A stretch of DNA of 61,475 bases, the filler included, from Basidioascus undulatus (lineage: Eukaryota), in NCBI GenBank assembly GCA_000826855.1. It is 10 parts of 10 records of this genome, joined end to end, with 100 filler letters (N's around TTAATTAATTAA, not from the genome) between each part and the next. Parts side by side here need not be neighbours in the genome. Positions count along the whole stretch, not along the records: positions 57,538 to 61,475 come from JTLS01002281.1; 9 more parts are not named here. The stretch is one strand, 5' to 3'. The notes beneath the pieces were generated by a model. The model was given only the letters and a program-made list of their open reading frames with translations. It had not been told where the DNA came from and ran no database searches. Made by a program: the position numbers and the translations under genes. Positions 1 through 58,829 of this stretch are shown here, piece by piece (positions within the stretch are counted from its first letter, which is position 1; every line of letters starts with the position of its first letter).

Positions 1-1385
1 GAGGGGAGAGGGGAGGCACGCACGCAGATCGCTATAGGCGTGCCGTGTAAAAGGTGCTGAACGATATGGTGCGACTCGAGGTTCTTGACCGTCTTGCATC
101 TGATGTTCGTTCCCGCATGCAGTCAGTCCCTTTCTCAGCAGCGCGAAATCATTGAGAACAACAGTGAAGGCGTTGGTGAAGACATACAGAAGGTTCGAGC
201 TCAGGCACAGTTCCAAGCAGATTCGCTTCTCCAGCACGACTTCGAGAGCCCGTGGGGAGAGGAACGTCGCGTGCCCGAGTCGGTCGGGGCGGCAGAGCGT
301 AAGAAGCTCATACTCGATCTGCTCCTCGTCGGGGGTCTGAGGTGCGGTCTGATGGGCGACGAACAGCGAGTCAGAGACAGAAGAGAAGGATTTGATGGGG
401 GGGGAACGAGAAGACAAGGAAGCGAAGGTGATTGGCGTACCTCGTAAAGGTGCATTGTGAGACCTAGGCCGGCAGCCTTTACCCGCGCGAGAGCAGGCAG
501 CAGTTGACGGACGTCGTTGCCCTACAGAAAAGGAGACATTTTTTCCAACAGCACTTATCAGCTTCAGGACACGGTTAAGCATCAAGGAGGTCCAGGTCAT
601 GCTTCAGGACATACCGTGGTCATGTCCCCGCAGAGATCTACGCCCATGACACGCTCGCCCTCCTCCTTCAGCTTCACTGCGAGCGCCACAATCTCATCCG
701 CATCCGCCGCGCTCATCCTCCTATCCACGGACACGATGAGCCCGACGCGCGAGGCGTCGCCGCCCAGTTCGTCGCGCGCGAAGTCCGCCATGGCGTGAAG
801 GACGGCGCGGAGATAGTCCTCGCGCGTGACATGCGTGGTGGATACGGCGCGAGGCGTGGTGCGGAGGTCGAGGTGCGTTGCATCTGCGCTGGCAGTAGAG
901 TTCGGAGGAGGAGAGAGGAAGAGGCGGAGGACGGAAAGTGTGGCGTGGTAGATTGCGGTGGGGGTGGACGTCAACCTGGGCGACAGCATCATGTCAGAAA
1001 AGGGGCAACTGGTGCGAGGAAAGGGTGAGTAAGGTGCATACGCGTATATGGAAGGGAAGAGCCCGAAAAAGTCTCCAATCTCCTCCAGTACCACGCCGTC
1101 TTCGAGCCTCCTCAGCCCGCTCTCGACCGCCTCTCCCTCGCCCACAAGCGGCAAGCTCTCCTCGCCGGGGAACGCGCGCCGATCTCTTCGACGGGCAGCG
1201 AGTTCGCGCAGCGTCTCAACGGGTATAGACCCGTTGAGGTGAGCGTGGAGTTCGGCGCGGTGCGGGAGCGTGTGCAGGAAGGAGAGCTGGGAGGGCGTGA
1301 GATGCTGGAGCGCTGCGGGACCTGGCGCGAGTGGAAGGGAACGTAGAGGGTCGGTTCCGGTAGGGAGCGTCTCCGTCGGACACAT
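1..1385 (-). CDS. ADAL: Adenosine deaminase-like protein (ADAL/N6-methyl-AMP deaminase type), multi-exon, 3' end runs off the window
   Basis: Spliced translation gives ELHAHLNGSIP (metal-binding), HLDLRTTPR, GVDLCGD, LTMHLYE, DRLGHATFL and LELCLSSN. GT-AG introns at about 1041-976 and 614-522. Confidence 0.85.
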
Positions 1386-1606
1386 TGTAGAAGGTGACTG
1401 GGAAGTGGATGTGCAGGTGCGAGAAAGCAACCGACGGCGGACGCTGCTTTCTATTTGAGTCGCGGAAAGAAACCGCCGCAAGCAGGGTAGTTGACCTAGT
1501 AGCAGCCAACAGGGAAAACAAAAAGAAACGTCGGTGACAGATCGGCAATTTTCATGTTAACGGAATGGGGTAGGAAGGTTGGTCGTCGCGCACGTACTTG
1601 CGTGAC

Positions 1607-1620: not shown

Positions 1621-1706
1621 GGGCCTGACCGGGAATTGAACCCGGGACCTCTCCCAAACTGCTAGAACAGCCCTAAGGGAAAATCATACTACTAGACCAT
1701 CAGGCC
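1621..1706 (-). tRNA. tRNA-Pro(AGG) with a 14-nt intron (1657-1670)
   Basis: Full cloverleaf: GGCCTGA/TCAGGCC acceptor, TTCCC-TT-AGG-G-[intron]-T-GGGAG anticodon arm, CCGGG-TTCAATT-CCCGG T arm. Confidence 0.95.
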
Positions 1707-2221
1707 TTAAGGGAAGCGGGCCAGTCCATATTTTATAGTCGGATATTGCCTTTCATGGGGAAGCATTTGTTGAATCTGGACGGGCTCTGCAGTCTAGACA
1801 TCTATGATCCCAAAAAATTCTTCATTCTAACTTCTTTTAACAGTAACCGCCGAGCTCAAAGTGCAGTCCCGCTTTGTCCGGTTCTACTGGCTTTGACTGA
1901 TATATTTGCAGCCGGAGTGCCACTGTCCAGCAATGGTCCAGCACTGTCCACTTGAAGCTATTAGTTTTAACTGGTACAGAGCGTCCGCTACGGTAGTTGG
2001 TGAAAAAGAACGGCGCACAGACTGTGCAGTAGTCGATGGTGAACCAGCAGCCACGTGCGGACGACGCGCCGGCCTGCGTGTTTGTCGACTCTTGCTGCGA
2101 GTTGAGTGACTTTCGATCTTGAGGGTCCTTCTTCGCCTCCGCTCCTCGCCTTGCTTCCCTTTCAACCCGCTCCTTCAACAACATCCACACACCAACACAC
2201 CCACACTCCTTCATCTCATTC

Positions 2222-5200
2222 ATGGCTCTATCATCCTCCCCCTCCTACCCGCCCACATCCACCCTCGGCCTAGGCCGGCCCTCCATCCTCGCCGCACCCA
2301 CTTCCCCCGCCCGCCCCCGCGCCCGCCGCGTCGCACCCTCCCCCAGCCTCGACAGCCTCACAGGCGACGACGACGACGACGACTCGTCTACCGATGAGGA
2401 AGCTTTGCCGATGCCAAGTACCCCTAGGCAACTGAGGAGGGGCACGGCGTGGAGAGAGCAGGAGCAGGGCGAGGAGGGCAAGGCAGAGAACGTACAGGTG
2501 TTTGTCCGGTACGTCCTTGTCGTTGTGGGACGTGAAGGAAAGGGAGCTGATGGGCAAATGGAACAGTCTTCGACCGTCACACGTCTCTGCCGTGGCTTCA
2601 TCTTCATCCTCCTCCGCTTCCTCCTCTGCACCGTCCTCCTCGCTCTACACCCTCGATGCTTCCACCGGCCAAGTCGTCCTCGCCGAACACCACCCAAACG
2701 TTGAGAAGCGGAGCGGGGGGAAGCCTGGCTGCGCGCAGGGCACGGAGGAAGGCGGGCAGTACCGGTTCCAGTTCGGTGAAAATATCCCATACTGTTCCCT
2801 TTCCCTTGCGGATTGCTCACGCGACCGGGCACCCAGACGGCCTCCTCCTCCCCCCCGCGCAAACGTCCACCCTCTATGAATCAAACATCACCTCCCTCAT
2901 CCGCTCCGCCATGAAGGGGTTCAACGCAACCGTTCGTCTTCCCTTTCTCCTCTTGCAGTTCCCAGACTGACCAGTGATCCCAATCCACGATAGGTCTTCG
3001 CCTACGGCCAAACCGGCTCGGGGAAGACGCACACGCTCACGGGCACGGAGGACGAGCCGGGCATCATCCCGCTAGCGGTGGAGCAGGTGTTCGAGGAGAT
3101 CTACGACGTGCGCGCACCCCATTCTTCCCTCTTCCTTTACACTTCCTCTAGTGGCTCACGCCCGCTGTGCCTCCCAGAACCCCGACCGCGACTTCCTCCT
3201 GCGCGTGCGGTACGTCGAGGTGCGTCGCGTCCAGCAACCGCTCGCCTATGTCGCCCGGCGAAGGACTAACCACGCTCGCTGCTGTTGCTGCAGATCTACA
3301 ACGAGAAGATCCGCGACCTCCTCGCGACCCCCTCCGTCAGCACCAAAGGGCTGCGAATGCGGGAAGACAAGCAGGTCCGTTCCTTCCTCCCTCTTCCTCT
3401 TCCTCTTCCTCTTCCTCTTCCTCTTCCTCTTCCTCTTCCTCTTCCTCTTCCTCTTTCTTTCTTATCTTGACTGGAGACTGATCCATCCCTCGTCCCGCGC
3501 ATAGGGTAACCCCTACGTCGAAGGCCTCCAGGAGGTGATCGTCACGACGCCTCAGGAGGTCCTCGCGCTCAAGGAGCAGGGCGAGAAGAACCGCCATGTG
3601 GGCGCGACGGACTGGAACGTGCGTTCAACCCTTCTTCCTTGTTTCTTCCCCTTGCTTTCTTCTTCCTTCTACCCCTTCTTCTTTCCCCTTCCTTTCCCGC
3701 TCGCCGCTGAGCTCCGCCCCCGGTTCAAACGCACAGGCGCACTCGAGCCGCTCGCACTGCATCTTCCAGATCGTCAGTTCCCTCTCCGGTTGTCAGACCT
3801 CCCCCCTTCCTCGCTCCATGCAGTTGACACTGCGAAAATCACCCGTGGCAGGTCATCGAGTCCTCCGAGAAAGTCGGCTCCCCGCAGCTGGGCGGCGTCC
3901 CCGCCAGCCCCGCGCCAGGGCAGCGCACCGCCACGCGGAAGAGCATCCTTGTTCGTTCCAAATCCTTACTCTGTGCCATACAAACGTGACCTTGCTGATA
4001 TGATGGCTCGGGTTTCTGATGGCAGAACCTCATCGATCTCGCCGGCTCGGAAAAGGCTGCGAGCGACTCGAACCGCCGCATCGAGGGGAGCAATATTAAC
4101 AAGTCGTGCGTCCCTCCATTTCTCACCCAGCTTGTTTCTGCTTCCTTGCTTGACGGCGCACTGCGTGGTGATGACCCTCCAGCCTTCTCGCCCTCTCAAC
4201 GGTCATCTCCGAGATAGTCAAGACGCCCAAGCCGACGCACATTCCGTTCCGGAACTCCAAGGTCTGGTTTGCTTCCCTCTTACCCTTCAGCTCCCACCCT
4301 ACCCTACTTTCGGCAGAGACTGACGTTGTGAGCATCCGGATGATCGCAGCTCACCCTCCTCCTCAAGCCCTCCCTCTCCGGCGACGCCAAGGTCGGCGTG
4401 GTGTGCACGATAGCGGACGGGGTCGAGTTCGCTGGTGCGACGCTCGACACGCTCAAGTTCGCTGTACGGCAACATCCTTTTCCTCTTCTTCCACTGTCTT
4501 ATTTGTCGACTCACACGTTTCGTTACCGACAGCGCACGATCAAGCGCGTCAAGACCGAGGCGAAGCGGGGTCTCGTGCGTCTTTTCTCTGTCTGCAAAGC
4601 GGTGAAAGCACCGACTAAAGCAGATGGTTGTGGCGCAGGTCCTCGACGGATCGAAGGACGCCCTCATTCAGCACCAGGCATCCCAGGTCCGCCAGCTCCA
4701 GCGCGAGGTCGCGGCGCTCGAGGAACTGCTCGACGAGGAGGTGCAGCGCGCGCGGGGAGAAGAGCGCGAGAAGCAGGCGGCCGCTGTCAGTCTTCCCTTT
4801 CAACACCCCTCCCCCACTCCTTTTCCCTTATTCCCGCCCGCATGCTCATCCCACACTTTCCACGCAGCACCAAGTCGAGATCGCGCGCCTGCGTGCCGAG
4901 CTGGAAGAAGCGAAGAAGCCGATCTTGAACGCTCTGGCCGTGGGCCCATCCGCGCGCCGCAAGTCGTCGCTGCTCGGAGGACAGCACGGCCCGCTCCTGG
5001 GCGGCTCGCGCCGTCTGTCTGATATGGGCCTCGGGCATGGAGCGCCGGGGTTCCGCGTGCCGAGCGGCCCGGGGCGGAGGGTCATCAGCGGGATCGCGGA
5101 GGGGTCGCCGGCGGTGGGGAGCGTGGAGAAGGTGCGTTCTGGGGAGAGGGAGTTTCCCACCGTTTGATGCGACACTTGCTGACCGCTATTAGGTTGGATG

Positions 5201-6913
5201 GGTACAGGAAGCCGCCCTCGAGAAGGAGCTCGAGCAATCCCGTGCCGCGCTCGGGGAGAAGGAGCGCCGCGTTGCCGAGCTGGAGGACGAGCTGCGCGTC
5301 CAGCGCCAGGTAGAAGTCGAGCGTGCCGCCGCACTGCGACGCGAGCGGGACGAGGCACGGGCGAAGGCGCTCAAGGGCGCGGACGAGGACGCCCAGCTCG
5401 CGTTCCTCCACCGCGAACGGGACGAGCACGCGGCCGAGGTCCGTCGGCTGCGCTCCACGCTGGATAGCAACAAGAATGACGCTTTGGGCGAGCTCGTCCG
5501 CGTCCAGCGGCAGAGGGACGAGCACTCTGCGGAGGTGCAGCGCCTGCGGGCGGCGCTGGAGAACCTGCGCGACGAGGAGGCTGGGGAGCTCGTGAGGGTC
5601 CAGCGTCTGGCGGACCGCCTGCGCGCGGAGCTTGACGCTGGCGAAGCTGCGGACGGCGAGCACGCCGCGGAGGTCCAGCGTCTTCGGGCCGCGCTCGAGA
5701 GCAGGCGGGCGGACGAGGCGTCGGAGCTCGTCCGCGTGCAAGGGCTGGCCGAGCGACACGCCGAGGAGGCCCGGCAATTTCGGGCGGAGCTCGACGCACG
5801 CTCGTCGACGGAGGCGGGCGACCTGGCGCGTCTGCAGGCGCAGCTTGACGAGGCGCGCGCGATGGCGTCCAAGGCGACCGCGTCGCTTGCGGAGCGCGAC
5901 GCGGCGCTGTCTGCGCGGGACGCCAAGATCCGGACGCTCGAGGCGCGCCGGCAGGAGGAGGAGGCTGAGGCGGGGAACGTGAACGTCGTCGGGCGGATGG
6001 AGGAGTACGTCGAGCTCCAGGCGAAGGCGGACGAGCAGCGGGAGACGATCGAGCGCCTCCAGGCGGAGGTGGGCAAGCTCAAGGCCCGCCCGCTTCCCGA
6101 GCCCAAACCCGCGACGACCGCCGCGCTGGCCATCCCGACTACACCGACGCGCACGCGCAGCTTCGCGGACCGCCCGTCGAACGTCGTGATCGTCGCTACG
6201 CCGACGCGGTACGGCAGTGTGCGCGAGCACGTGCGGTATGAGGGCGCGGGGTCCGGGGCGAGGGAGAAGGACTGGGAAGAGATTGCTAGGCTGAACGAGG
6301 TCGTTCGGAGCCAGCGGTGAGTTGCGGAGTTGCTTCGAAGATATGCCTGCCTGGTGCTTGGAGCTGACGCCTTGCCTTGCCTTGCTTTGCAGCGACACCA
6401 TCGCCGAGCTTCGCAAGGATCTCGCTCAATGGCGCAGCGTGCGTCCTTCACCCTATTTAAGTCGCTTTGTGCTTTGGCTGACCCTCTGCCGTTCCCGTCC
6501 CACAGCAACTCGCCGCCCAACAAACGCTCATCGAGTCCCTCATCGGCACCTCCTCCTCTTCCTCCTCTTCCTCCTCCGGCCCCCCTCCCGCACCGACCTA
6601 CCCCTCTTTCTCCCCTCTCCGCGCAAACATCTCCACCCGTCCCATCTCCTCGCCCGCACCCTCCGAGCTCGAGCCCCAGCAAACCGGCTTCCGCACTCCG
6701 ACCAAGGCGTCGTCTGCCGCGTGGACAGCCGGCACGCCCGAGCCGCTCCCCGCGCACGCGGGCCTGCGCAGCAACAGCATCCGCCGTGGACCGCGCAAGA
6801 CGATCGAGCACGACCTCAAGTTCCTCGCTTCCACTAGCCGCGTCGAAAAGTCAAAGACGCTGCTCAGAGCTGACAGCCCGAGGACGTCCCGCCAGGGCTT
6901 CAGGCCATCTTAG
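2222..6913 (+). CDS. Kinesin motor protein, kinesin-7 (CENP-E/Kip2-like), many exons, long coiled-coil tail
   Basis: ENVQVFVR, P-loop [70 protein letters not shown] is typical of kinesin-7. Stop TAG at 6911-6913. Confidence 0.9.
3391..3453 (+). repeat. (CTTCCT)n microsatellite inside a kinesin intron
   Basis: About 10 tandem hexamer units visible directly. Confidence 0.9.
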
Positions 6914-7307
6914 GCGCGGGCTGAGTTGACAGGCTCCCCCTCCCCACTTTTCGTATTCTTTTGGCTTCAAGGTGTGCGCTGGCCGCACTTGCTGATCTCG
7001 ACCGCACTCGCATCGCACCTTCCCACCGTTCAGTCTGTCTTTTGTCTTGTCGCTGTTCCCTCATTCGATTTTTCTCTTCGCCTCAGTTTGGACGCTTTCC
7101 CTTGCGCTGTATCGAATGCTCTGCGATGATGACATCCTGTGACAATGATGTCGTGTCTGTGGGTTAATGGCAGCGAAGGTCGTTGGCGAAAACCTGTTCG
7201 CGACCATCTTACGCGGCCTTGCTTCGAGTACATGCATGCGACATAGCAGCATTCACGTGGGCAGTAACAGCATGTAATGGTCGATAGTTCAACATGCGAT
7301 GTGACAG

Positions 7308-8529
7308 CTATGCATCCTTCGTCGCACCCAGGCGCCTGCCCTCCTCGTCGTAGACCTGGATGCCACAGCGCTCCAGCTTTAGACTCATTCGAACGGCCCA
7401 GGCAAGGAGGGCATCATCGCGAGTCAGCTCCCATGTAAACGGTCCTGAAAGGGGGAGCCGCAGCGTGACCATGTCGAACTTCTGCCAGGGGGCCGTCGCG
7501 AGTCCGCCAAGCATATCTCCCGAGAGACGTGCGATATTCGAGATATGTTTTCGGGAGGGCTCAGTGAGAGCCGTCAGAAACGCAGTCGGAAGCTCAGACA
7601 GTCTTGACGGTGCGCTAAGGGCAAGCCGGAGCGTGCGAAGATTCGAGCACACCGCGAGCACGGGAGCAAGCACTACTTGCTCGTCGCCTTTAGAGCAAGA
7701 AAGCGCACATTCTGGTCGTGACATTTGAAAAATGAAACGAGGTGCTCTGCGGTGTTCACTCGCACGGCCACCGAAACCACGCTGAGTGCCGGGAGTACGA
7801 CGGCCGAGAGCGCTGGAGAACCGAAAGCCAACGAGAGCGGTCGATTTGAGGTAGAGATTTTCGAGACGAGGCATGTCCAAGGGCATGGACTCGGTATCTG
7901 GAGCTCCAAACGCGACGCGCTTACTTTAAGGTATCGAAGGCCCTTAAAGCGGTTCAAGACGAAGAATAATAATCCCGCACTGGTTACGAGCGGCAGCTTG
8001 ACGTGAACTTCGAGGGAAGTGAGGCTAATGTCGCAGCTGCGGCTCATCGTGTCGAGGAGCTGCAACCCAGAACGGTAGCCCTAAGGCCCTTGGGTGGAGC
8101 CTATGGCGCTGAAAGCCGTCAGGTGGCCAAGGAGCAGCGCAAAGGAGGTCATCGCGGTGAGGTCGAGCGAGCTGGCCGCCAGATCTTCGTTGATGCAGAC
8201 GTTGACACAGCGAATGAGAGCGGCCATATGGAACATTCCGCTTCTCGAAGGTGAGGAGGCTCTCATAAAGGCGCTCGATCGAGACAAGAGACCGGAGGGT
8301 GATCGTTTCGAGGAAGTGACGCTGGGCAACAGGCTGTTGGCCAAACCTCCCCACTCAGTAATAGGGCTTAGACAACGGTTGGGGGAAAACTTACGTATAG
8401 CTTCTTACAGATCAAGGGGAGAGCATTGCGCGTCGCCACCGCTTCCGCGCTCGTGTCGTCGACGGTGGCGAACGCAAAGGTGCGCAGAAGAATCTCGTCG
8501 GGAAGGGCCAAGATCGGGCTAAGGGTCAT
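7308..8529 (-). pseudogene. F-box/LRR-like gene with frameshifts
   Basis: Exon 1 MTLSPILALPDEILLRTFAFAT...LPLICKKLY ends at a GTAAG donor. Leucine-rich segments (LTSLEVHV, LRYLKVS, PRLENLYL, NLRTLRL) are spread over several frames. Confidence 0.55.
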
Positions 8530-8930
8530 GTTGGAAGAATCTCGGTATGACCGGGAATATCAAAAAGTTGCGAAGCTGGTCGAGGAAGGAGCTCGGCGTA
8601 GGCGGGCTGTGAGACGAGTGTGGTGGCGGTAGCTGGCCAACCCGAGGGTCAACCCCTGAGCGGTGAAGAACGTTGTCAGGGGCTCATGTAATCCGCATCC
8701 CAGAAGTTTCACTTTTTGTCTCGTACAACAAACGTAAGCTGCTTATGCATTTCAAACTGCTTTTGCCTAATGACTTGGACAAGTTGATTCTACTCTCAAC
8801 CTGGCTGGGTGCTGCATGATTCAGAGGCGAGTGCCGCAAATGCGCGGTTCACAAACCTTCACGGCTCTGGGAAAATGCAACAGAACCAAAAGGACTCTGG
8901 TCATATTCCTTTGTCTGCACACTGATACGT

Positions 8931-11560
8931 TCACTCGCTGTCACTATAGCGCCCAACAACCAGGGGAAGCTGCGCCCCTTCGGCCTCCCTGCCCTTGACT
9001 TTGGTAAGGAGGCTCGGGATGAAGGTTCGTGTGATTTCCGGCCGGTTGGGCGGCAGCTCGAAAGTGTCTAGAGATAACTGTGTAAGTGGCTTACCCAACG
9101 ACTTAACAATGGTATGAGCTTCGACCGACAGCTTGCGACGAGGGTTGCAATCACCGTCTAGAGTAATATGGCTGCGCCCGTAAGTATTGAATGCACACGG
9201 AACCAATGACCTTCTTTGGGCCTACCATCAACTCTGCGACAGCGAAACGATACCCCAGACAGATTCGGGGTCCGGCTGAGAAAGTTACTGCTCGATCAGG
9301 CTCTCAGACTGTCAGATAAACCCTTAATTTGGCGTCGATATGGACAAAGTGCGGAAGACGCACAAATGTTGGACCACCCCTGCAACCGCTCCCCGCTGTA
9401 GCCTTCATACCTTTCCAGCCACCTCTCGGGACGAAAGTGCATGGAGTCTGGTCCCCAAAGTGTCGTGCTGACATTCGCGCCAGTGCTGGAGATGGAAATG
9501 GACGTTCCGACGGGCACGAAGAGAGATTTGTGCTCCTTTCCGGAGAGACCGACGAGGGGCACCGCGAGCGGGAGGGTAAGATCGAACGCAGCCTGGGGGT
9601 GGTGAGAAAAGGCAGCCGGTCAGAGCAGTTCATCAGAAGACGACGGCAAAGATTGGGAGGTGGGACATACAGCTCGGATTATTCCAGGTGCCGCGCTTTC
9701 TATACGAAGTGTTTCGGCGACAACTGCACTGAGGTAGCGAAGCTTGTCGAGCGCTGCGTAGGAGGGCTGCTGACCGAGTGATCGGACCTCAGCCCGCAGA
9801 CGGTGCTGGACGGAGGGGTTTTGGGCGAGGCTGGTGTGATTTTTTTCAGAATCAAGTCAGGCCTATGGAGGTGGTTTAGGCTCCTACTGGTACAAGCCCC
9901 CCGCCACGCTAGCAGCGGTGGTTTCCTGCCCTAAGCTCATCAGTGAAAGCAGCTGCAGGATGGGTGCAGCAATAGAAACGAACGTGTCCCGCAAAGCTGT
10001 TCCACGGGAAAGTCAGAAAGGCTCAGGTCTTGGATAAAGAGACCTTTCTCACAATATGACACACATCTGGTCCATTATCACATCGTCGGACAGATCCTTT
10101 GCCCCGTCGGCGGTTACTGCATATGAACAGGTAAGCAAAATGCTCAGTGTGGTCCCTCAAGGCACCCTTTGAGCTGTGAGGACTGGGTGCTGACCAATGC
10201 GCGACAGAAGCTCATGTTTGTGCGCTGCAACATGATCGGCATGGCGTCTGGCCTCGCCAAGTAGCGGACGCGCCAGCGTGGTCATTGAATTCTTGATTTG
10301 CAGTAGCGGAGCGAGGACCCAGACGGGCAGGCTGAAGAGGTAGGGCACGCGCTCGAGAACAAAAAGGGACTGTACGGGTATCGTTAGAAAAATCCCCTGA
10401 CGTACTCCAAGAAGGGAAACAAAGCCGACATAGTATTTGTAGAGGGAGGAGATGCGGGTGGACTCCTGAATTGCATCGAGGATCGCGCATGGCTTGCCGG
10501 AGACGGTGCTGAGCTTGACACCGAATGCTGCACCGATAATGATGTCGAAGCTGAAGATGATTAGAATACCCAGAATTTCCGCTTGTGAGTTTCATGGGAC
10601 CCAAAAACGACAAAAACGCACGTCACAGAAGACGCCCATCTTCGGGCGTCCATCAGGACCGGCCCATCAAAAGTCAGGGCATCCCACTCAGCCCGCAGCT
10701 GCAAAGAAAGAATTCAGCACAGATTATACACACAAAGTCAAGTCAAGTATACCAGTATTACCTCTGTCAGTGTCTCATACATCACCGGCAGTGACGCCTC
10801 GGTGGCTTGCGCCGAGAAGCTTGGATTGAGAATTCTGCGCATCTTGCGATGCTCCTCGCCGTCGAGAGCAGCTGTGTGTTTATTTCAGCTCACTTTTTCA
10901 AAACAATCATAATAACACGAGAATACAAACCCAAGTTCTTGCTGCCGACAAACTGATGGGAGGGTAATTATCAAAGCCGCTAAGCGCAGGTGAAGAAGGA
11001 CTTGCCAGAGCATGTTGAACCTGGAGGTTAGAAGGCCGAACAGTGCTGTATGGTTCCTTGATGAGAAGGTAGTTGACGGCGGCCGGGTCTTTGACACAGC
11101 ATTCCTCATTAGTATGGAAGTCGAGTAAATCGAGTAACCGTGTAGCTTGTAGCATAAGGACGTGCCCGCAATGATCAATTTGGGCCCCGATCCGAAAGCA
11201 CCGTCGTATCTGCCAAGAGAGCTTCTGTTTCAGAACAATCTAAAGCTTTTGCTCGTCAAAGACTAACCTGAATACCAGCCCGTGCTCCTCGAGCCACTCT
11301 CCCTCCGTCTGTTGAACGTCTCCGACACGCAACTTGCGCTCATGGCCCCATACAAAGCTCTCGTGAGGCTACCAACACAATTCAGTAAGTACTTGGTTAG
11401 AGCTAGATTAGGGGCATATAGGATGGCTCACAGGTCCCTTCACGTCTGCGAGTGCTTGCTTGATACGCCAACGGCGCAAGACGCTCGGAATGATCCTCAG
11501 ACTGGCGAGACACAGGAGCACGGCCTTGAGGATGATTGTGGTGCTGGGGAGGTGGATCAT
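8931..11560 (-). CDS. Cytochrome P450 monooxygenase, intron-rich
   Basis: N-terminal TM plus GPPHESFVWG, I-helix GQETT (~9920), ETLR (~9710), FRPERW (~9430), heme motif FSAGPRICLG (~9250-9283). Confidence 0.9.
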
Positions 11561-20509: not shown

Positions 20510-20599
20510 GGCCTGATGGTCTAGTAGTATGATTTTCCCTTAGGGCTTCTGTAACTAGCTGTTTGGGAGAGGTCCCGGGTTCAATTCCCGGTCAGGCCC
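20510..20599 (+). tRNA. tRNA-Pro(AGG) with an 18-nt intron (20546-20563)
   Basis: Exons identical to the 1621-1706 copy. T5 terminator at 20610-20614. Confidence 0.95.
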
Positions 20600-21977: not shown

Positions 21978-22392
21978 TTTGTTGTGTGTCTTTCAGTGGA
22001 GAGACTCGATGCTGTGTAGTGGAGATGAAAGATGAGGGCCAAGCATCAGCCAAGCCTGGGCAGGAACGCAGCGCAGCGCCCATGTCCGCTGCCCGGTTAA
22101 CCTGCGGGCTTCTCTGAAAAATGTCCGCCTGCCGACTGGGTCCAAAGACGTTGAAAACTACTCAAGGGGTTGCCTGGCTTGCCGCACGGCTTGCCTGCTA
22201 TTGCAGTGGGAGTTGTCGACGGTCGCCTTGGAGGATCGACCACATCATGAAAGACAAAATCAACAATGGCTTCAGTAGTACCTAGCTCCGGAGAATACCA
22301 ACAGAGCTCCTCTCCGCCACGGAAGACGCCCAGCGCACCTTCGGCAGCCGGTGAAGGAGAGAAAAGGAATCTACTTCGGGTGGCAAAAAGTG

Positions 22393-22478
22393 GGGCCTGA
22401 CCGGGAATTGAACCCGGGACCTCTCCCAAACAGCAACAGTAGCCCTAAGGGAAAATCATACTACTAGACCATCAGGCC
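22393..22478 (-). tRNA. tRNA-Pro(AGG) with a 14-nt intron (22429-22442)
   Basis: Exons identical to the other two copies. T5 terminator at 22385-22389 on the minus strand. Confidence 0.95.
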
Positions 22479-27415: not shown

Positions 27416-28079
27416 TGTGACGCGTGGGGGTGTTCTGTGGCGTGAATGTGGCTGGTGCTTGTGTAAGAGAGAAAGAGGAGGAAAGTGAGATGAGAGGGAG
27501 AGCAGGAGAGCGGACAGCGAGCTGGGACTGGACGTCAATCGCGACGCGCCCGGTGCGCGCGGGCCGTTTCCCTTACCGCGAGGCTCGTCGAGCTTGCTTG
27601 CCCTCGTCGCTGTCTGTTCTTCTCGCTCGCCGCTCGCCGAAGGGCGCACTAAGCACGTCGCGCACACAGACGCAACGAATAGCGCTTGGGAGTCGTTGCC
27701 GTGGCTGATACCACCGCGCTCCGAGCTCAGAGGCGGATCGCAGGGAGCCACGAAGGTCCGGTACGCCCACTCGCTCGCGGTTTGCTCGCAGGTCCCGGAG
27801 GAGGCACGGTGAAGGCTGAAGTGGGCTGGGGGAAAGCAGACACAGGCATTTAGATAACCCCTCGGAGGTCGACATACCCGCATACCCCTGTGCATCGCAC
27901 CAAGCGAGCAGCGCCCTGTCGGACGCCAGCCCGATCCCTTCTCCCTTCGCCCTTCGCCCTTCGCTTTCTCTTGGGCGCTCGAAGAAGCGCGTAGTCAAGG
28001 GTGAGTGTTGATCTTTCTCGAACGCGACTTTCATCAGTGGGAAAGGGCGAAGTGGAAGCTGTAGTATCTGGCGTTGGGA

Positions 28080-29055
28080 TTGAGAGCTGCACCGTTGAGG
28101 AATGCTGAGTTGGTGTCCAGCTGGTGGATGTGCCAGTCGTGGCAGGCAGCGAGGGCGAGGAGGATGCGGAGCGAGGAGAAACAGAGGACAGGTGAGAATG
28201 TCTCCTTGAAGTCGAGGCTGGGAACTTGAGCGAAGCCACGGATGACGAGGCGCGCTCCTGTGTTTGACGATATTGCCCTGAGCGTCATGCTTGAGGGCAA
28301 AGACCCACTTAGGTGTGAGGACCTTGCGGTTCCAAGGCATGGTCGCGCGGAGGACAAGCTCGTATGTTTGCATGTGCACCAGCAAGTCCATCTCAGCCTG
28401 ACAGGCAGCCCCCCATTCGCGAGCAGCCGGGCCAGAGAGAGCTGCGTGCAGTGTGGCCGGGGCCCAGCTGGGAAGCGTGTAGAGGTTGAGATCAGAGGAG
28501 CAGGCAGTGGCAGAGAGACCCTGGTGTGAAATGTCGGCAGGAGTGTCCTCGTCATCTGAGATGATGTCTAGTGGGTCGTCAGACGAGTCTGAGTCGGTCT
28601 GCGCTTCCCCCTCTCACTCAGGTGCCCCCACTGGCTCCGGCTCCTCTGAGTGAGAGCTGGCAGAGGCATCAGGCGTATGTGGTTAAAGAGGAGGTCCATA
28701 GGGTGACAACAGTGCTGATGAGGAGGACGAGGATGAGGGAGAGTGTGAAGCGGAGGACAAGATTGATGACGAGGATGAGGATGAGATTGGCGGAGAGGTG
28801 GTGCTTTTGGCGGAAGAGATTGGTGTGACATCATCAGAAGCGGGGAAGGAAGACACTGGAGCTGGAAATATGGAAGGGACCAGAGGGCTGTTTGTCACCA
28901 TCCTCATGCATGGGCATGCCGTCCTCGAAGAAGGAGACGTCGCAGGAGAGGGAGATACAGCAGGCGATAGGGTCATAGATATCGATATGCACACTTCTTC
29001 TCTTCATTCAATTCTTTCTTGTTTGACACTTAACACACTTAGCCTTGACTCCGCC
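28080..29055 (-). mobile_element. Degenerate Ty1/copia retrotransposon pol fragment (start of RVT_2)
   Basis: KWVFALKHDAQGNIVKH, frameshift, ARLVIRGFAQVPSLDFKETFSPV...WHIHQLDTNSAFLNG. Homology ends abruptly after AFLNG. Confidence 0.9.
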
Positions 29056-49438: not shown

Positions 49439-51408
49439 TCAGCGTCTACTTTCCCTCCATTATCTTCCCCCTCTCCGTCCTTCGCACCAGCCCAAGCGAC
49501 CTGCCGCCCGCCCTGCACCGCAACTTCCACACGCCGCACCAGCGCGGGGGCGGCGCGCGGGGCAGAGGTATCGTAGATCTCGAGAGTGTTGTCGGGGAAG
49601 AGGACGGCGAGGCGCGGGAGGGCGGGGTGGCAGGCTATGTGTGTTGGAGTGGCGGTGTGGGGGAGTGAGGTCAGGGACATTGGGGGTGGGACGTTGGCGT
49701 GCGCGAAGGGAGTAAGGAGGGTGCGGGCTGGTGGTAAGGGTGGGGGTGTGAGTATGGGAGAAAGAATGAGGGAGGGAGGGCGAGGGAAGACCCACGACCA
49801 TCGATCACTGCTACGAGGCCGGAGGACGGCGCCGAGGCTGTGAGGGAGGGCGCGGCGTGCGTGTCCCAGGTGAAGGTGTGGGTGGTGAGGGTGTCTGCCA
49901 TTCTCCCACAACTCAGCTCAACTCTGCACTGCAAAGCAGAGAAGGGAAAAGAAGGAGCAGCGCACCTCGAGTCGTCACGCTCAGATGGAGAGTTTTCTCC
50001 GGGTGCCACGCGATCGAAGTAACCCCTTCCCCGTCTACTCGCATCTCCGCCTTGAGGTACCAGTGCCAGTTCCCCATGGTATACAGTTGGACTGTCCCAC
50101 CCTGCATCAGCCCCTCCTCTCTCTCTCTCCCCGCCTTCCGAACGCACCGAAGTCGCCGTCCCCCTCCTCCCCTTCCCCAACGAGCGCCAACACCTCGCCG
50201 CCCACAGCCCAGCGCATCTCCCTGACCCTTCCCCTGGCCCCAGCGCCGCGCACCTCAAACTCCCCATGCCTCAGCCCATTCCGCTCAAAAAAAACCACCT
50301 CGCTCCTCTGCTTCCCCTCCCCGCCGCCCTCGTACCCGTACCGCTGCACAGCCGCAATGAGCGGTGCCCCGCCGCTCGTGCGCCAGGCGAGGGGGTGCTC
50401 GAGCCCCGGGAGCGGAGCGGACGTGGATTGTAGGGCAGCGGTGCGCGAGTACACGCGGAGGATCCGCCCCGAGGTGGAGGGGGAGAGTGCGTCGAGCGTG
50501 GAGATGCTGAAGTACGCGGAGTCGGGGCGCCAGGTGATGCGCGGGAGGCGGTCGTCGTAGGGCGAGGCTACAGAATGCACTTGGGAGGAGGTTCCAGCTG
50601 CCGCGGCCGCCTTGCCGAGCGAGCCGTGGAACTGCGTGGATTTCGACCCCCAGCCGACGTTGATGGGCTCGTCTGCTCGGGGGAGGGGGTGAGTGTGAGA
50701 GAGAGAGGGGGGAGGAGGGAGACGGCACCGACCTTGGCCGAATTCGGAGGAGCGCAGGGGCGACTCGGAGAGGACGTCGAAGGAGGACGTCATGAGGAGG
50801 ACCTTGTCCGCTGCGCTGACAAGCGCGAGGAGCTCCTCGTCCGGACTCCATGAGGCGGCCAGCACGCCGGGTTCGACGGTCCCTACGATGTCGGCCTGTC
50901 ACAAACACCCACCCCATGATGCCGTTTTCAATGAATGAAACCAGGACGGGAAGAGGGAAACGGCGCACCACCGGCGGAAGGTCGTCGGATACGGCGATGA
51001 GCGCGATGTCACCTGAGCGGGTGATCGCGCAAAGGGAGGCATCGGAGGGGATGTAGAAGAGCGAGACGAGCTCGTGTGGCTTGGACAGGCCGGCGGGGGG
51101 AGTTTCCGACGAGGAGGGGGTGGTGAATGTGCAAAGCAGCTGTGCGGGCCGGCTCGCCATTCAGCTTGTCTGTCTCCCTCCTTCGATCCAAGAAGGATAT
51201 GAAAAGAGAAACGCACCTCGCTCTTCTCCTCGTCCTCCCGCACCCTGACGATCCCAACCTCGACCATACCGCCTCCCTCCTCTTCCGTGCGCTCCCAAGC
51301 GACGAACGTCGACCCGGACTCGACGTCGATGCACGTCGCGCTGAGCGTACCGCTCGTGGGAACGGGTATCTGCGATGTGTCGGATGATAGTTGCGTGAGA
51401 GACCGCAT
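49439..51408 (-). CDS. ELP1: Elongator complex subunit 1 (IKI3), 5' part
   Basis: ASWSPDEELL, NVGWGSKSTQFHGS, ITWRPDSAYFSIS, VVFFERNGLRHGEF, VQLYTMGNWHWYLK. Truncated by a gap. Confidence 0.95.
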
Positions 51409-57437: not shown

Positions 57438-57539
57438 NNNNNNNNNNNNNNNNNNNNNNNNNNNNNNNNNNNNNNNNNNNNTTAATTAATTAANNNNNNN
57501 NNNNNNNNNNNNNNNNNNNNNNNNNNNNNNNNNNNNNAG

Positions 57540-57612
57540 ATCAGGGGGTTGCAGGTTCGATCCCTGCGTCGGTCACGGCCGGCTGGCTCAATGGTAGAGT
57601 ATCTGACTACGA
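57540..57612 (+). tRNA. Candidate circularly permuted tRNA-Arg(ACG): 3' half (nt 38-73) at 57540-57575, 1-nt spacer, 5' half (nt 1-37) at 57577-57612
   Basis: The halves assemble into a full cloverleaf: acceptor GGCCGGC/GTCGGTC plus A73, D arm GCTC-AATGGTA-GAGT, anticodon arm TCTGA-CT-ACG-AA-TCAGG, variable loop GGGTT, T arm GCAGG-TTCGATC-CCTGC. Confidence 0.75.
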
Positions 57613-57615
57613 CTC

Positions 57616-57621
57616 TTTTTT
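57616..57621 (+). terminator. Pol III T6 terminator directly after the tRNA-Arg 5' half
   Basis: ACG-A-CTC-TTTTTT. Confidence 0.75.
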
Positions 57622-57858
57622 GCATGTCATAAATCTGTCGCATTCAGAAGATAGCCCCCTACAAAACATTATGTTGCATTTATAGTGAAGTAGGTGTCCC
57701 GTTGTTGTCCATCATGCTCCAGACAGCGGCCAGGTCGTCTGGTGCAGTTTGCCCTTCAACCACTACTGTCATTCACGACGCAGAGTCCGCCCGGATCTGC
57801 TCCTTGCGCTCATCTCTCGCATCGTGTTCTCACCTACAAAATCAACTTTTCGCACATC

Positions 57859-58829
57859 ATGTCCATCTCGATCCCACTCGACATAGTCGGTAGGGTCGCC
57901 GAGCAGCTCGCCACTTCCTCCCACCCACTGGCGGACGGGCGACCCCCCGAGGTCGTGGAGACGCTTCTTGCGCTGACACTGGTTTCACGAGACGTAAGGG
58001 AAATTGCTTTGCCCCACCTTTATCACTCAGTGTGCGGGTCGTCGGCCCTGTCGCTTACCGGTGCGGTCCCGCCCTCCGGACGGCCGCTGCACCTCTTCGA
58101 GTCGCTATGATCAACGAACTCTACGACATGATGCTCCCGCTCTCGGAATCGGGTCGTCGCAATGTTTTGCGGAGGTTCGAGGAGGCCTTCGACGCTATGC
58201 TGCGAATCTGGGCCGCCTTCTCATTTCGTTCGACTGGTTGGACCTCTTCGAGCCACACCCCGAGCGATGGAGTATTGGTGACAAAATCATCACTCCTGTA
58301 GCGTGCCCCAAGCTCGAGGAGGTAGCAGTCATCAGTCTAGGACCATCGCCTGCTGTTAGCGAGACGAGCTGGACTTCCACTGTGTCGCTACTTTGCGAAA
58401 TCGCGGCACAGCCGGCCGCAGCTACTCTTCGTCGGCTCTGCTTCACCTTGCGCAAGGCGTTCTGGATCAATGAGAAGTTTCACTTCCGCGACTTACCTCC
58501 TTGACTCACCTCGTCCTGCTACAAGCAGATTCCTCTGCGATATTCTCACAAGGTCTAGATATTCCGGCCTTTCTCGCTATGCCGGTTCTGGAGCATCTTC
58601 TCGTCATGTACCCCGACAACATGAGCCCTCGTCGTCGTTTAAGATCTCTCCATGGTTCTTGCAAAGGCAGAAGCCTTCAAGTGTGAGTACGTCGGATCGC
58701 AGGCGTCCCGGGTAGAACTCCTGGGATTCGGCAGCGGCGGTAGGTGAAGCGGTGCTAGACGCGTTGCTGGACGGTACAATATGGGACATGGAGGGCATGG
58801 CTTTGGCGGAGGTGCTGGGGACGGACTAG
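57859..58829 (+). pseudogene. F-box/LRR-like gene with several frameshifts
   Basis: MSISIPLDIVGRVAEQL...LLALTLVSRDVREIALPHLYHSV, then CPKLEEVAV, TLRRLCF, LTHLVL and VLEHLLV in shifting frames. Confidence 0.55.

Follow-up and report, generated by a model that had tools for sequence, protein, structure and literature searches.

Circularly permuted tRNA genes, in which the tRNA's 3' half precedes the 5' half, are reported in the available portions of two reviews, of 2014 and 2026, only from some algae, nucleomorph(s) and archaea (PMC3978253, PMC13578239). As the pathway is outlined in the first of these, transcription from upstream elements runs to a T stretch, an endonuclease cuts the motif formed by leader and trailer, and ligation yields a circle (PMC3978253); RNase P and tRNase Z then remove the intervening sequence and CCA is added (PMC3978253). 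The sole published gene with a 1-nt linker also encodes the CCA, and the section describing it calls the removal of that linker unclear (PMC3978253). A literature search found no permuted tRNA gene in a fungus and no tRNA-related SINE of a basidiomycete with such a layout. tRNA-derived SINEs and tandem repeats are multi-copy elements with A-box- and B-box-like motifs, different flanks and a tail of variable length.

A rotated tRNA-Arg(ACG) at the start of a contig

The window analysed is a stretch of 61,475 nucleotides (filler included) from Basidioascus undulatus. It consists of ten contigs, one of 25 kb and nine of about 3.9 kb that are ordered from longest to shortest, with linkers of the form N44-TTAATTAATTAA-N44 between them across 24996-57537, so that adjacency across the linkers is meaningless. 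Inspection of the contig at 57538-61475 showed that it opens with AG directly ahead of A38, followed by the 3' half of a tRNA, a single C, the 5' half, CTC and a run of six Ts (Table 1). ARAGORN called no tRNA in the native order, and identified a tRNA-Arg(acg) of 72 nt with four regular stems when the sequence was rotated or circularised. The 3' half thus lies upstream of the 5' half, and rotation gives the full cloverleaf with its anticodon, a regularity far beyond chance. A reading made beforehand from the sequence alone (hereafter the sequence-only reading) had claimed this order, the pairing of all four stems after the swap and a break at the canonical 37/38 position; each was borne out, ARAGORN giving 7 acceptor pairs (2 of them G-U), 4 in the D arm, 5 in the anticodon arm and 5 in the T arm, with 57540 as A38 and 57612 as A37. 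Within the permuted unit the order of the boxes is B before A. The C of the linker (57576) could stand for C74. The same reading had described CTC and T6 behind the 5' half with no second 3' half, and the downstream 3.9-kb contig indeed contained no remnant of either half (scores of 11-20, against shuffle means of 14.5-15.0 and maxima of 21-25).

Table 1. Features of the permuted unit and of the tRNA-Pro(AGG) genes, in window coordinates
Feature	Position	Strand	Basis or remark
Leader end, AG	57538..57539	+	Last two bases before A38; G(-1) common to the other two leaders seen
tRNA-Arg(ACG) 3' half, positions 38-73, 36 nt	57540..57575	+	Sequence and ARAGORN
B-box-like GGTTCGATCC within the 3' half	57554-57563	+	Motif
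Single C between A73 and G1	57576..57576	+	Exact unitigs spanning the junction at 16-18x single-copy depth
tRNA-Arg(ACG) 5' half, positions 1-37, 36 nt, lacking position 17	57577..57612	+	Sequence and ARAGORN
A-box-like TGGCTCAATGG within the 5' half	57584-57594	+	Motif
Anticodon ACG	57609-57611	+	Within the 5' half
CTC trailer	57613..57615	+	k=31 contigs; spacer differs between copies (none, CG or CTC)
T6, Pol III terminator-like	57616..57621	+	Sequence and k=31 contigs; T3 to T5 in other copies
77-nt stretch, probably exactly common to at least one other locus	57538..57614	+	Coordinate arithmetic
tRNA-Pro(AGG)	1621-1706	-	ARAGORN with intron option
tRNA-Pro(AGG)	20510-20599	+	ARAGORN with intron option
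tRNA-Pro(AGG)	22392-22478	-	ARAGORN with intron option

A 24-nt probe from the 5' half gave one match in metagenomes, an ordinary gene at a locus designated L001. This gene (565-636, minus strand) encodes tRNA-Arg(ACG), has no intron and lies on a metagenome contig that is eukaryote-like and very rich in AT. The rotated sequence agrees with it at 59 of 72 positions, including the complete D arm (15/15) and anticodon arm (17/17), with mismatches mainly in the acceptor stem. This match indicates that both halves derive from a genuine Arg-ACG tRNA, and the sharing of the whole D and anticodon arms indicates that this type of tRNA body is widespread. The junction pattern itself, a T arm followed after 14-20 unspecified letters by a D arm, had 0 matches in metagenome, genome and viral contigs. 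Among the arginine codons of two coding fragments of the window, CGC was the commonest (22 of 54, with CGT, CGC and CGA together accounting for 30 of 54), implying that a tRNA-Arg(ACG) is needed.

Evidence for the host came from an exon-sized fragment of the Elongator subunit ELP1 at 50110-50898 on the minus strand (Pfam, E 1e-57). Its best 120 listed matches showed 45-54% identity and all the named ones among them were from Basidiomycota, in agreement with the fungal host assumed in the sequence-only reading. Only 3 of the 74 long open frames of the window had a Pfam match, as expected with intron-rich genes; a weak match to adenosine deaminase was found at 600-1556 (minus strand), and a copia-type reverse transcriptase fragment at 28037-28567 (minus strand; RVT_2, E 8e-18) shows that the genome carries LTR retroelements. 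Three near-identical tRNA-Pro(AGG) genes are located on the 25-kb contig, with introns of 14-18 nt at position 37/38, which shows that this genome has both ordinary tRNA genes and splicing at 37/38. In both of the two tRNA-Pro genes inspected, out of the three in the window, a T5 run follows 2-10 nt behind the ARAGORN call. When ARAGORN was run without the intron option, the first tRNA-Pro gene was missed and the other two were labelled Lys(ctt) and Glu(ttc).

Copies, flanks and leaders in public reads

Logan k=31 contigs of three public runs (X1, X2 and X3, representing two samples) were matched to positions 57538-58137 with a threshold of 90% over roughly 30 nt, including matches down to 30 nt. 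The contig is contained completely in X1 and X2 and partly in X3; the first two runs are possibly the source of the assembly and hence are not independent samples. In X2 and X3 the loose ends considered cover every partly matching contig (8/8 and 2/2); a further 66 contig pieces and 3 loose ends lie outside the set considered, and a filter may drop records. In X1, the A73-C-G1 junction was contained in an exact unitig (57546-57598) with a depth of 298 compared with 16.1 for single-copy sequence (about 18 copies), and a variant of the junction with one mismatch had a depth of 175 (about 11 copies). In X2, where single-copy sequence has a depth of 40.1, the corresponding values were 650 (about 16 copies) and 473 (about 12 copies), and in X3 a unitig at 57568-57612 reached 60.7 against 2.8 (about 22 copies). 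Additional variants of the junction carried 2, 5 and 7 mismatches. Based on depth relative to single-copy sequence, the permuted unit is present in about 22-30 copy-equivalents, of which about 22 have the same sequence over G66-A37. Summed depths of 1,800-11,400 were rejected as copy numbers since the 30-nt overlap of adjacent k=31 unitigs makes them count more than once; the summed depth bins of X3 are exact sums of its five contigs. The permuted order is therefore real DNA present in multiple copies and not an assembly glitch, and the concern about misassembly voiced in the sequence-only reading is answered by the presence of the junction in k=31 contigs of three runs, in at least five variants and at multi-copy depth. 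The locus in the window belongs to a genuine family of units derived from tRNA-Arg(ACG), which has about 22-30 copies in a basidiomycete genome.

On the right-hand side the contigs diverge after A37, and a T run begins 0-3 nt later in at least seven different right flanks. Loose ends were located behind 57612, 57613, 57618, 57619 (two contigs) and 57620 (two contigs), in addition to the present locus. T5 follows A37 directly in one class of contigs and after CG in another, and five further contigs have a CTC-like spacer and T3-T5. About 11 of about 22 copies have a run of only T3-T4, a short one by the standard of Pol III terminators in fungi. Beyond the T run the flanks are unrelated, except for one pair with an agreement of 0.77, so that in this respect the copies are dispersed as those of a SINE are (about 22-30 copy-equivalents, at least seven right-flank classes). 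One flank contig of 874 nt has about 9x single-copy depth and another about 3x. The base following the T run is G in five of six flank classes, this locus included; chance, descent from a common source or a preference in insertion site could account for it.

The start of the assembled contig can be accounted for by arithmetic. In X1 and X2 alike, the contig carrying this locus at single-copy depth starts at 57585, which at k=31 places the first locus-specific base at 57615. The distance from 57538 to 57615 is 77, the same as the sum of the parts (2+36+1+36+2). The contig start was thus probably set by an assembler leaving a repeat vertex at k=77 and does not mark the boundary of an element. 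If so, its position 2 nt before A38 is a coincidence of lengths and carries no information on the upstream side. A check of k=77 through overlaps between contig ends found none among the 10 contigs. The sequence-only reading had given the contig start correctly as 2 nt upstream of A38; taken as an element boundary, it is probably not one.

Two left flanks were seen among the listed contigs, compared with at least seven right flanks, which fits a repeat that usually continues to the left of 57538. In one of them the similarity ends just before G(-1), and the sequence ahead of A38 reads G-T-C-G, C-G. Its resemblance to a diverged D loop with TTG lacked significance, since the score was reached in 680 of 2000 shuffles. 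It also carries ACCACGA 23 nt before A38, matching the end of the 5' half at 6 of 7 positions; this was rejected as a sign of an ordinary intron-containing copy because the match is too weak and no such joint was reported. The other left flank belongs to a diverged copy whose similarity starts from position 43, with a T5 run 19 nt farther upstream. A different arrangement was found in a 93-nt contig of X3, equivalent to about 12 copies, which consists of 57568-57597, then TTG, then 57538-57597. Here AG-A38 is preceded by TTG, a 5' part comprising G1-G22, the C and the end of a 3' half, giving a tandem register of 63 bp in the copies that this contig represents. For about 12 of about 22 copy-equivalents, conservation thus reaches well beyond A38 on the upstream side, and for this part of the family the prediction that no 5' half would lie upstream fails. 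One simple tandem duplication of 63 bp (TTG to G22) inside a permuted unit would yield such a register. ARAGORN called no tRNA in the 63-nt unit. An A box stands ahead of a B box solely where the truncated 5' part lies upstream, as in this 93-nt contig.

Ordinary-order copies were sought in the listed contigs of X1, X2 and X3. These contained no joint of A37 to A38, either direct or across up to 40 letters, and no leader before G1 or trailer after A73. The threshold of 90% over about 30 nt could miss an ordinary gene whose acceptor stem differs. Within that scope, these contigs give no sign of the ordinary Arg(ACG) gene whose existence the sequence-only reading had asked about.

The sequence-only reading had further predicted a leader of the type GTAG-AG that would pair with the anticodon loop. 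The leaders of two other copies come close, with G-T-N-G opposite C32-C35 and a 2-nt overhang before A38, so that three of the four central pairs are possible; G(-3) is present in both leaders seen and able to pair with C32. However, the lowest-energy structure of leader, anticodon loop and trailer of the 93-nt X3 contig is an extended rod (-10.9 kcal/mol) and not a bulge-helix-bulge.

Repeat family or working genes

Probabilities for the explanations considered here are judgements from a rough tally of subjective values, starting from a prior of 1:5 against a fungal permuted gene; the tally was adjusted after a first pass, two values being changed and an item for the T run added, and both passes came out near a guess by eye. 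It is very improbable that the unit is an artefact of assembly or reads at a contig end, or one ordinary gene with a partial duplicate at this locus. The feature does lie at the very start of a 3.9-kb contig in a fragmented draft, and X1 and X2 may have supplied that assembly, but a different assembler (k=31) recovers the junction in three runs, multi-copy, with at least five variants and at least seven right flanks. A duplicate at a single locus is opposed by the AG before A38, which rules out an intronless upstream copy, a point on which the sequence-only reading and the present analysis agree, and by the lack of a 3'-half remnant downstream. Some other tRNA-like non-coding RNA of the Y-RNA or YrlA kind, with a looped acceptor end and with paired RNA ends in place of the anticodon arm, is unlikely. 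YrlA (RF02553) was the sole Rfam match, covering T arm, closed acceptor and D arm (30.3 bits, E 0.001), and the leader of the 93-nt X3 contig can pair with anticodon loop and trailer into a rod. However, the match stays far below the gathering score of 69 and is one that any permuted tRNA would give, the sequence of the anticodon loop is kept intact, and the long Ro-binding stem is not visible.

The choice therefore lies mainly between a tRNA-derived repeat of Pol III type, SINE-like and/or partly tandem, and a working family of type II (37/38) permuted tRNA-Arg(ACG) genes. We favour the repeat as likelier than working tRNA genes, with a confidence that stays a little below an even chance; the working family is a tentative reading that we hold to be less probable though far from negligible. 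Working genes would be transcribed by Pol III through leader, 3' half, C, 5' half and trailer up to the T run. Cuts by the splicing endonuclease behind A37 and ahead of A38 would be followed by ligation of the ends into a circle by Trl1, and RNase P would open the circle before G1, the C being trimmed or kept as C74 and CCA completed; an A box ahead of the B box could come from the truncated upstream 5' part. Rotation yields a perfect tRNA, with D and anticodon arms identical to those of an ordinary Arg-ACG gene elsewhere, and this flawless cloverleaf speaks for genes and weighs against a repeat. So does the form of the copies: about 22 are identical from G66 to A37, conservation stops exactly at A37, and a free spacer and a T run follow, as in a Pol III gene family, and this locus, with T6 3 nt after A37, resembles the tRNA-Pro genes of the window. 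Arginine codons that need a tRNA-Arg(ACG) are common, which counts against a repeat, and the contigs listed for X1-X3 contain no ordinary-order copy, whereas a young repeat should sit beside its near-identical source genes; an ordinary gene with a different acceptor stem may, however, escape the threshold of 90% over about 30 nt. The introns of ordinary tRNA genes at 37/38 imply enzymes that cut and join there, and the other leaders offer G(-3) to C32 together with three of four G-T-N-G pairs, but the lowest-energy fold of leader and trailer is the rod. Maturation would also not be easy: with a linker of 1 nt, the 6-bp acceptor stem has to be closed by a 4-nt loop, at which RNase P would have to cleave, and about half of the copies have only T3-T4, the linker and the short T runs both counting for a repeat. 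Conservation upstream into the truncated 5' part differs from the free leaders of ordinary tRNA gene families, and together with the 63-bp tandem register and the embedding of copies in larger repeats (flank contigs at about 9x and 3x) it points to a repeat, as does the absence of any permuted fungal tRNA gene from the literature found, which leaves working genes without a fungal precedent. For the repeat itself, on the other hand, neither target-site duplications nor a LINE-type tail could be shown. The suggestion of a functional permuted gene in the sequence-only reading thus stands as regards the real order, the multi-copy state and the T run behind A37, and is weakened by the truncated upstream 5' part, the 1-nt linker and the T3-T4 runs.

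Both joints of the unit, A73 plus one C to G1 and the break at 37/38, are RNA processing sites, suggesting an origin at the RNA level or from a head-to-tail dimer. For the favoured repeat, a founder may have been assembled out of processed pieces of tRNA or pre-tRNA, or may go back to a head-to-tail dimer, before spreading. In composite copies, the A box of the truncated part and the B box of the 3' half could drive Pol III, the T run would end the transcript, and the product would be a tRNA-like RNA and not a decoding tRNA. A reverse-transcribed mature tRNA was considered as the template and is less likely, because A34 is kept and is not G; inosine at position 34 would be read as G by a reverse transcriptase. 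A reading as an LTR primer-binding site was also rejected, as the copies have different flanks and the complement of the 5' half is not bordered by an LTR end.

The family represents either a novel type of tRNA-derived repeat or the first family of rotated tRNA genes in a fungus. A repeat of this kind would be an unusual one. With processed tRNA ends as its building blocks, it would illustrate the origin and spread of head-to-tail tRNA joints, which have been proposed as the first step towards permuted genes. Permuted tRNA genes, if confirmed as such here, would be the first in fungi (opisthokonts) and the first multi-copy permuted family. If they work, the route through a circular intermediate would also operate in fungi, with their well-studied splicing enzymes and easy genetics. 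On the layout of the sequence it is conceivable, at odds clearly short of even, that this basidiomycete obtains its essential tRNA-Arg(ICG) only from a multi-copy family permuted at 37/38, through a circle made by Sen and Trl1, with the C serving as C74. Standard tRNA finders are blind to permuted tRNA genes, and with working genes of this type a tRNA missing from a fungal annotation may hide a rotated gene.

Comparison with permuted genes, YrlA and SINEs

As described in the available portions of the sources, type II (37/38) permuted genes of Ostreococcus, Micromonas, the Bigelowiella nucleomorph and Cyanidioschyzon merolae share the order of the halves and the position of the break with the unit reported here (PMC3978253, PMC13578239). 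According to the same portions, the algal genes are also alike in the T stretch after the 5' half, in not encoding CCA and in the regular rotated cloverleaf. They differ in having linkers of 7-74 nt in the cases given there, compared with 1 nt here, and in being single genes, compared with about 22-30 near-identical copies, some with a truncated upstream 5' part; the present family, moreover, has a fungal host. The permuted tRNA-Tyr(GTA) of Thermofilum pendens likewise has a 1-nt intervening sequence and is, in the passage describing it, an archaeal single gene with its break at 59/60 (PMC3978253). There the acceptor loop is larger because CCA is encoded, as far as that passage details the gene.

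YrlA (RF02553) resembles the unit in its permuted tRNA-like order of T arm, closed acceptor and D arm, but it is a bacterial family, and the present unit retains the halves of the anticodon loop. tRNA-derived SINEs are alike in their multi-copy state, A- and B-box-like motifs, varied flanks, occurrence of some copies in larger repeats and variable tail. In contrast to those elements, the unit has a tail of T and not of A, a length of about 80-110 nt, and rotated halves that together make one complete tRNA.
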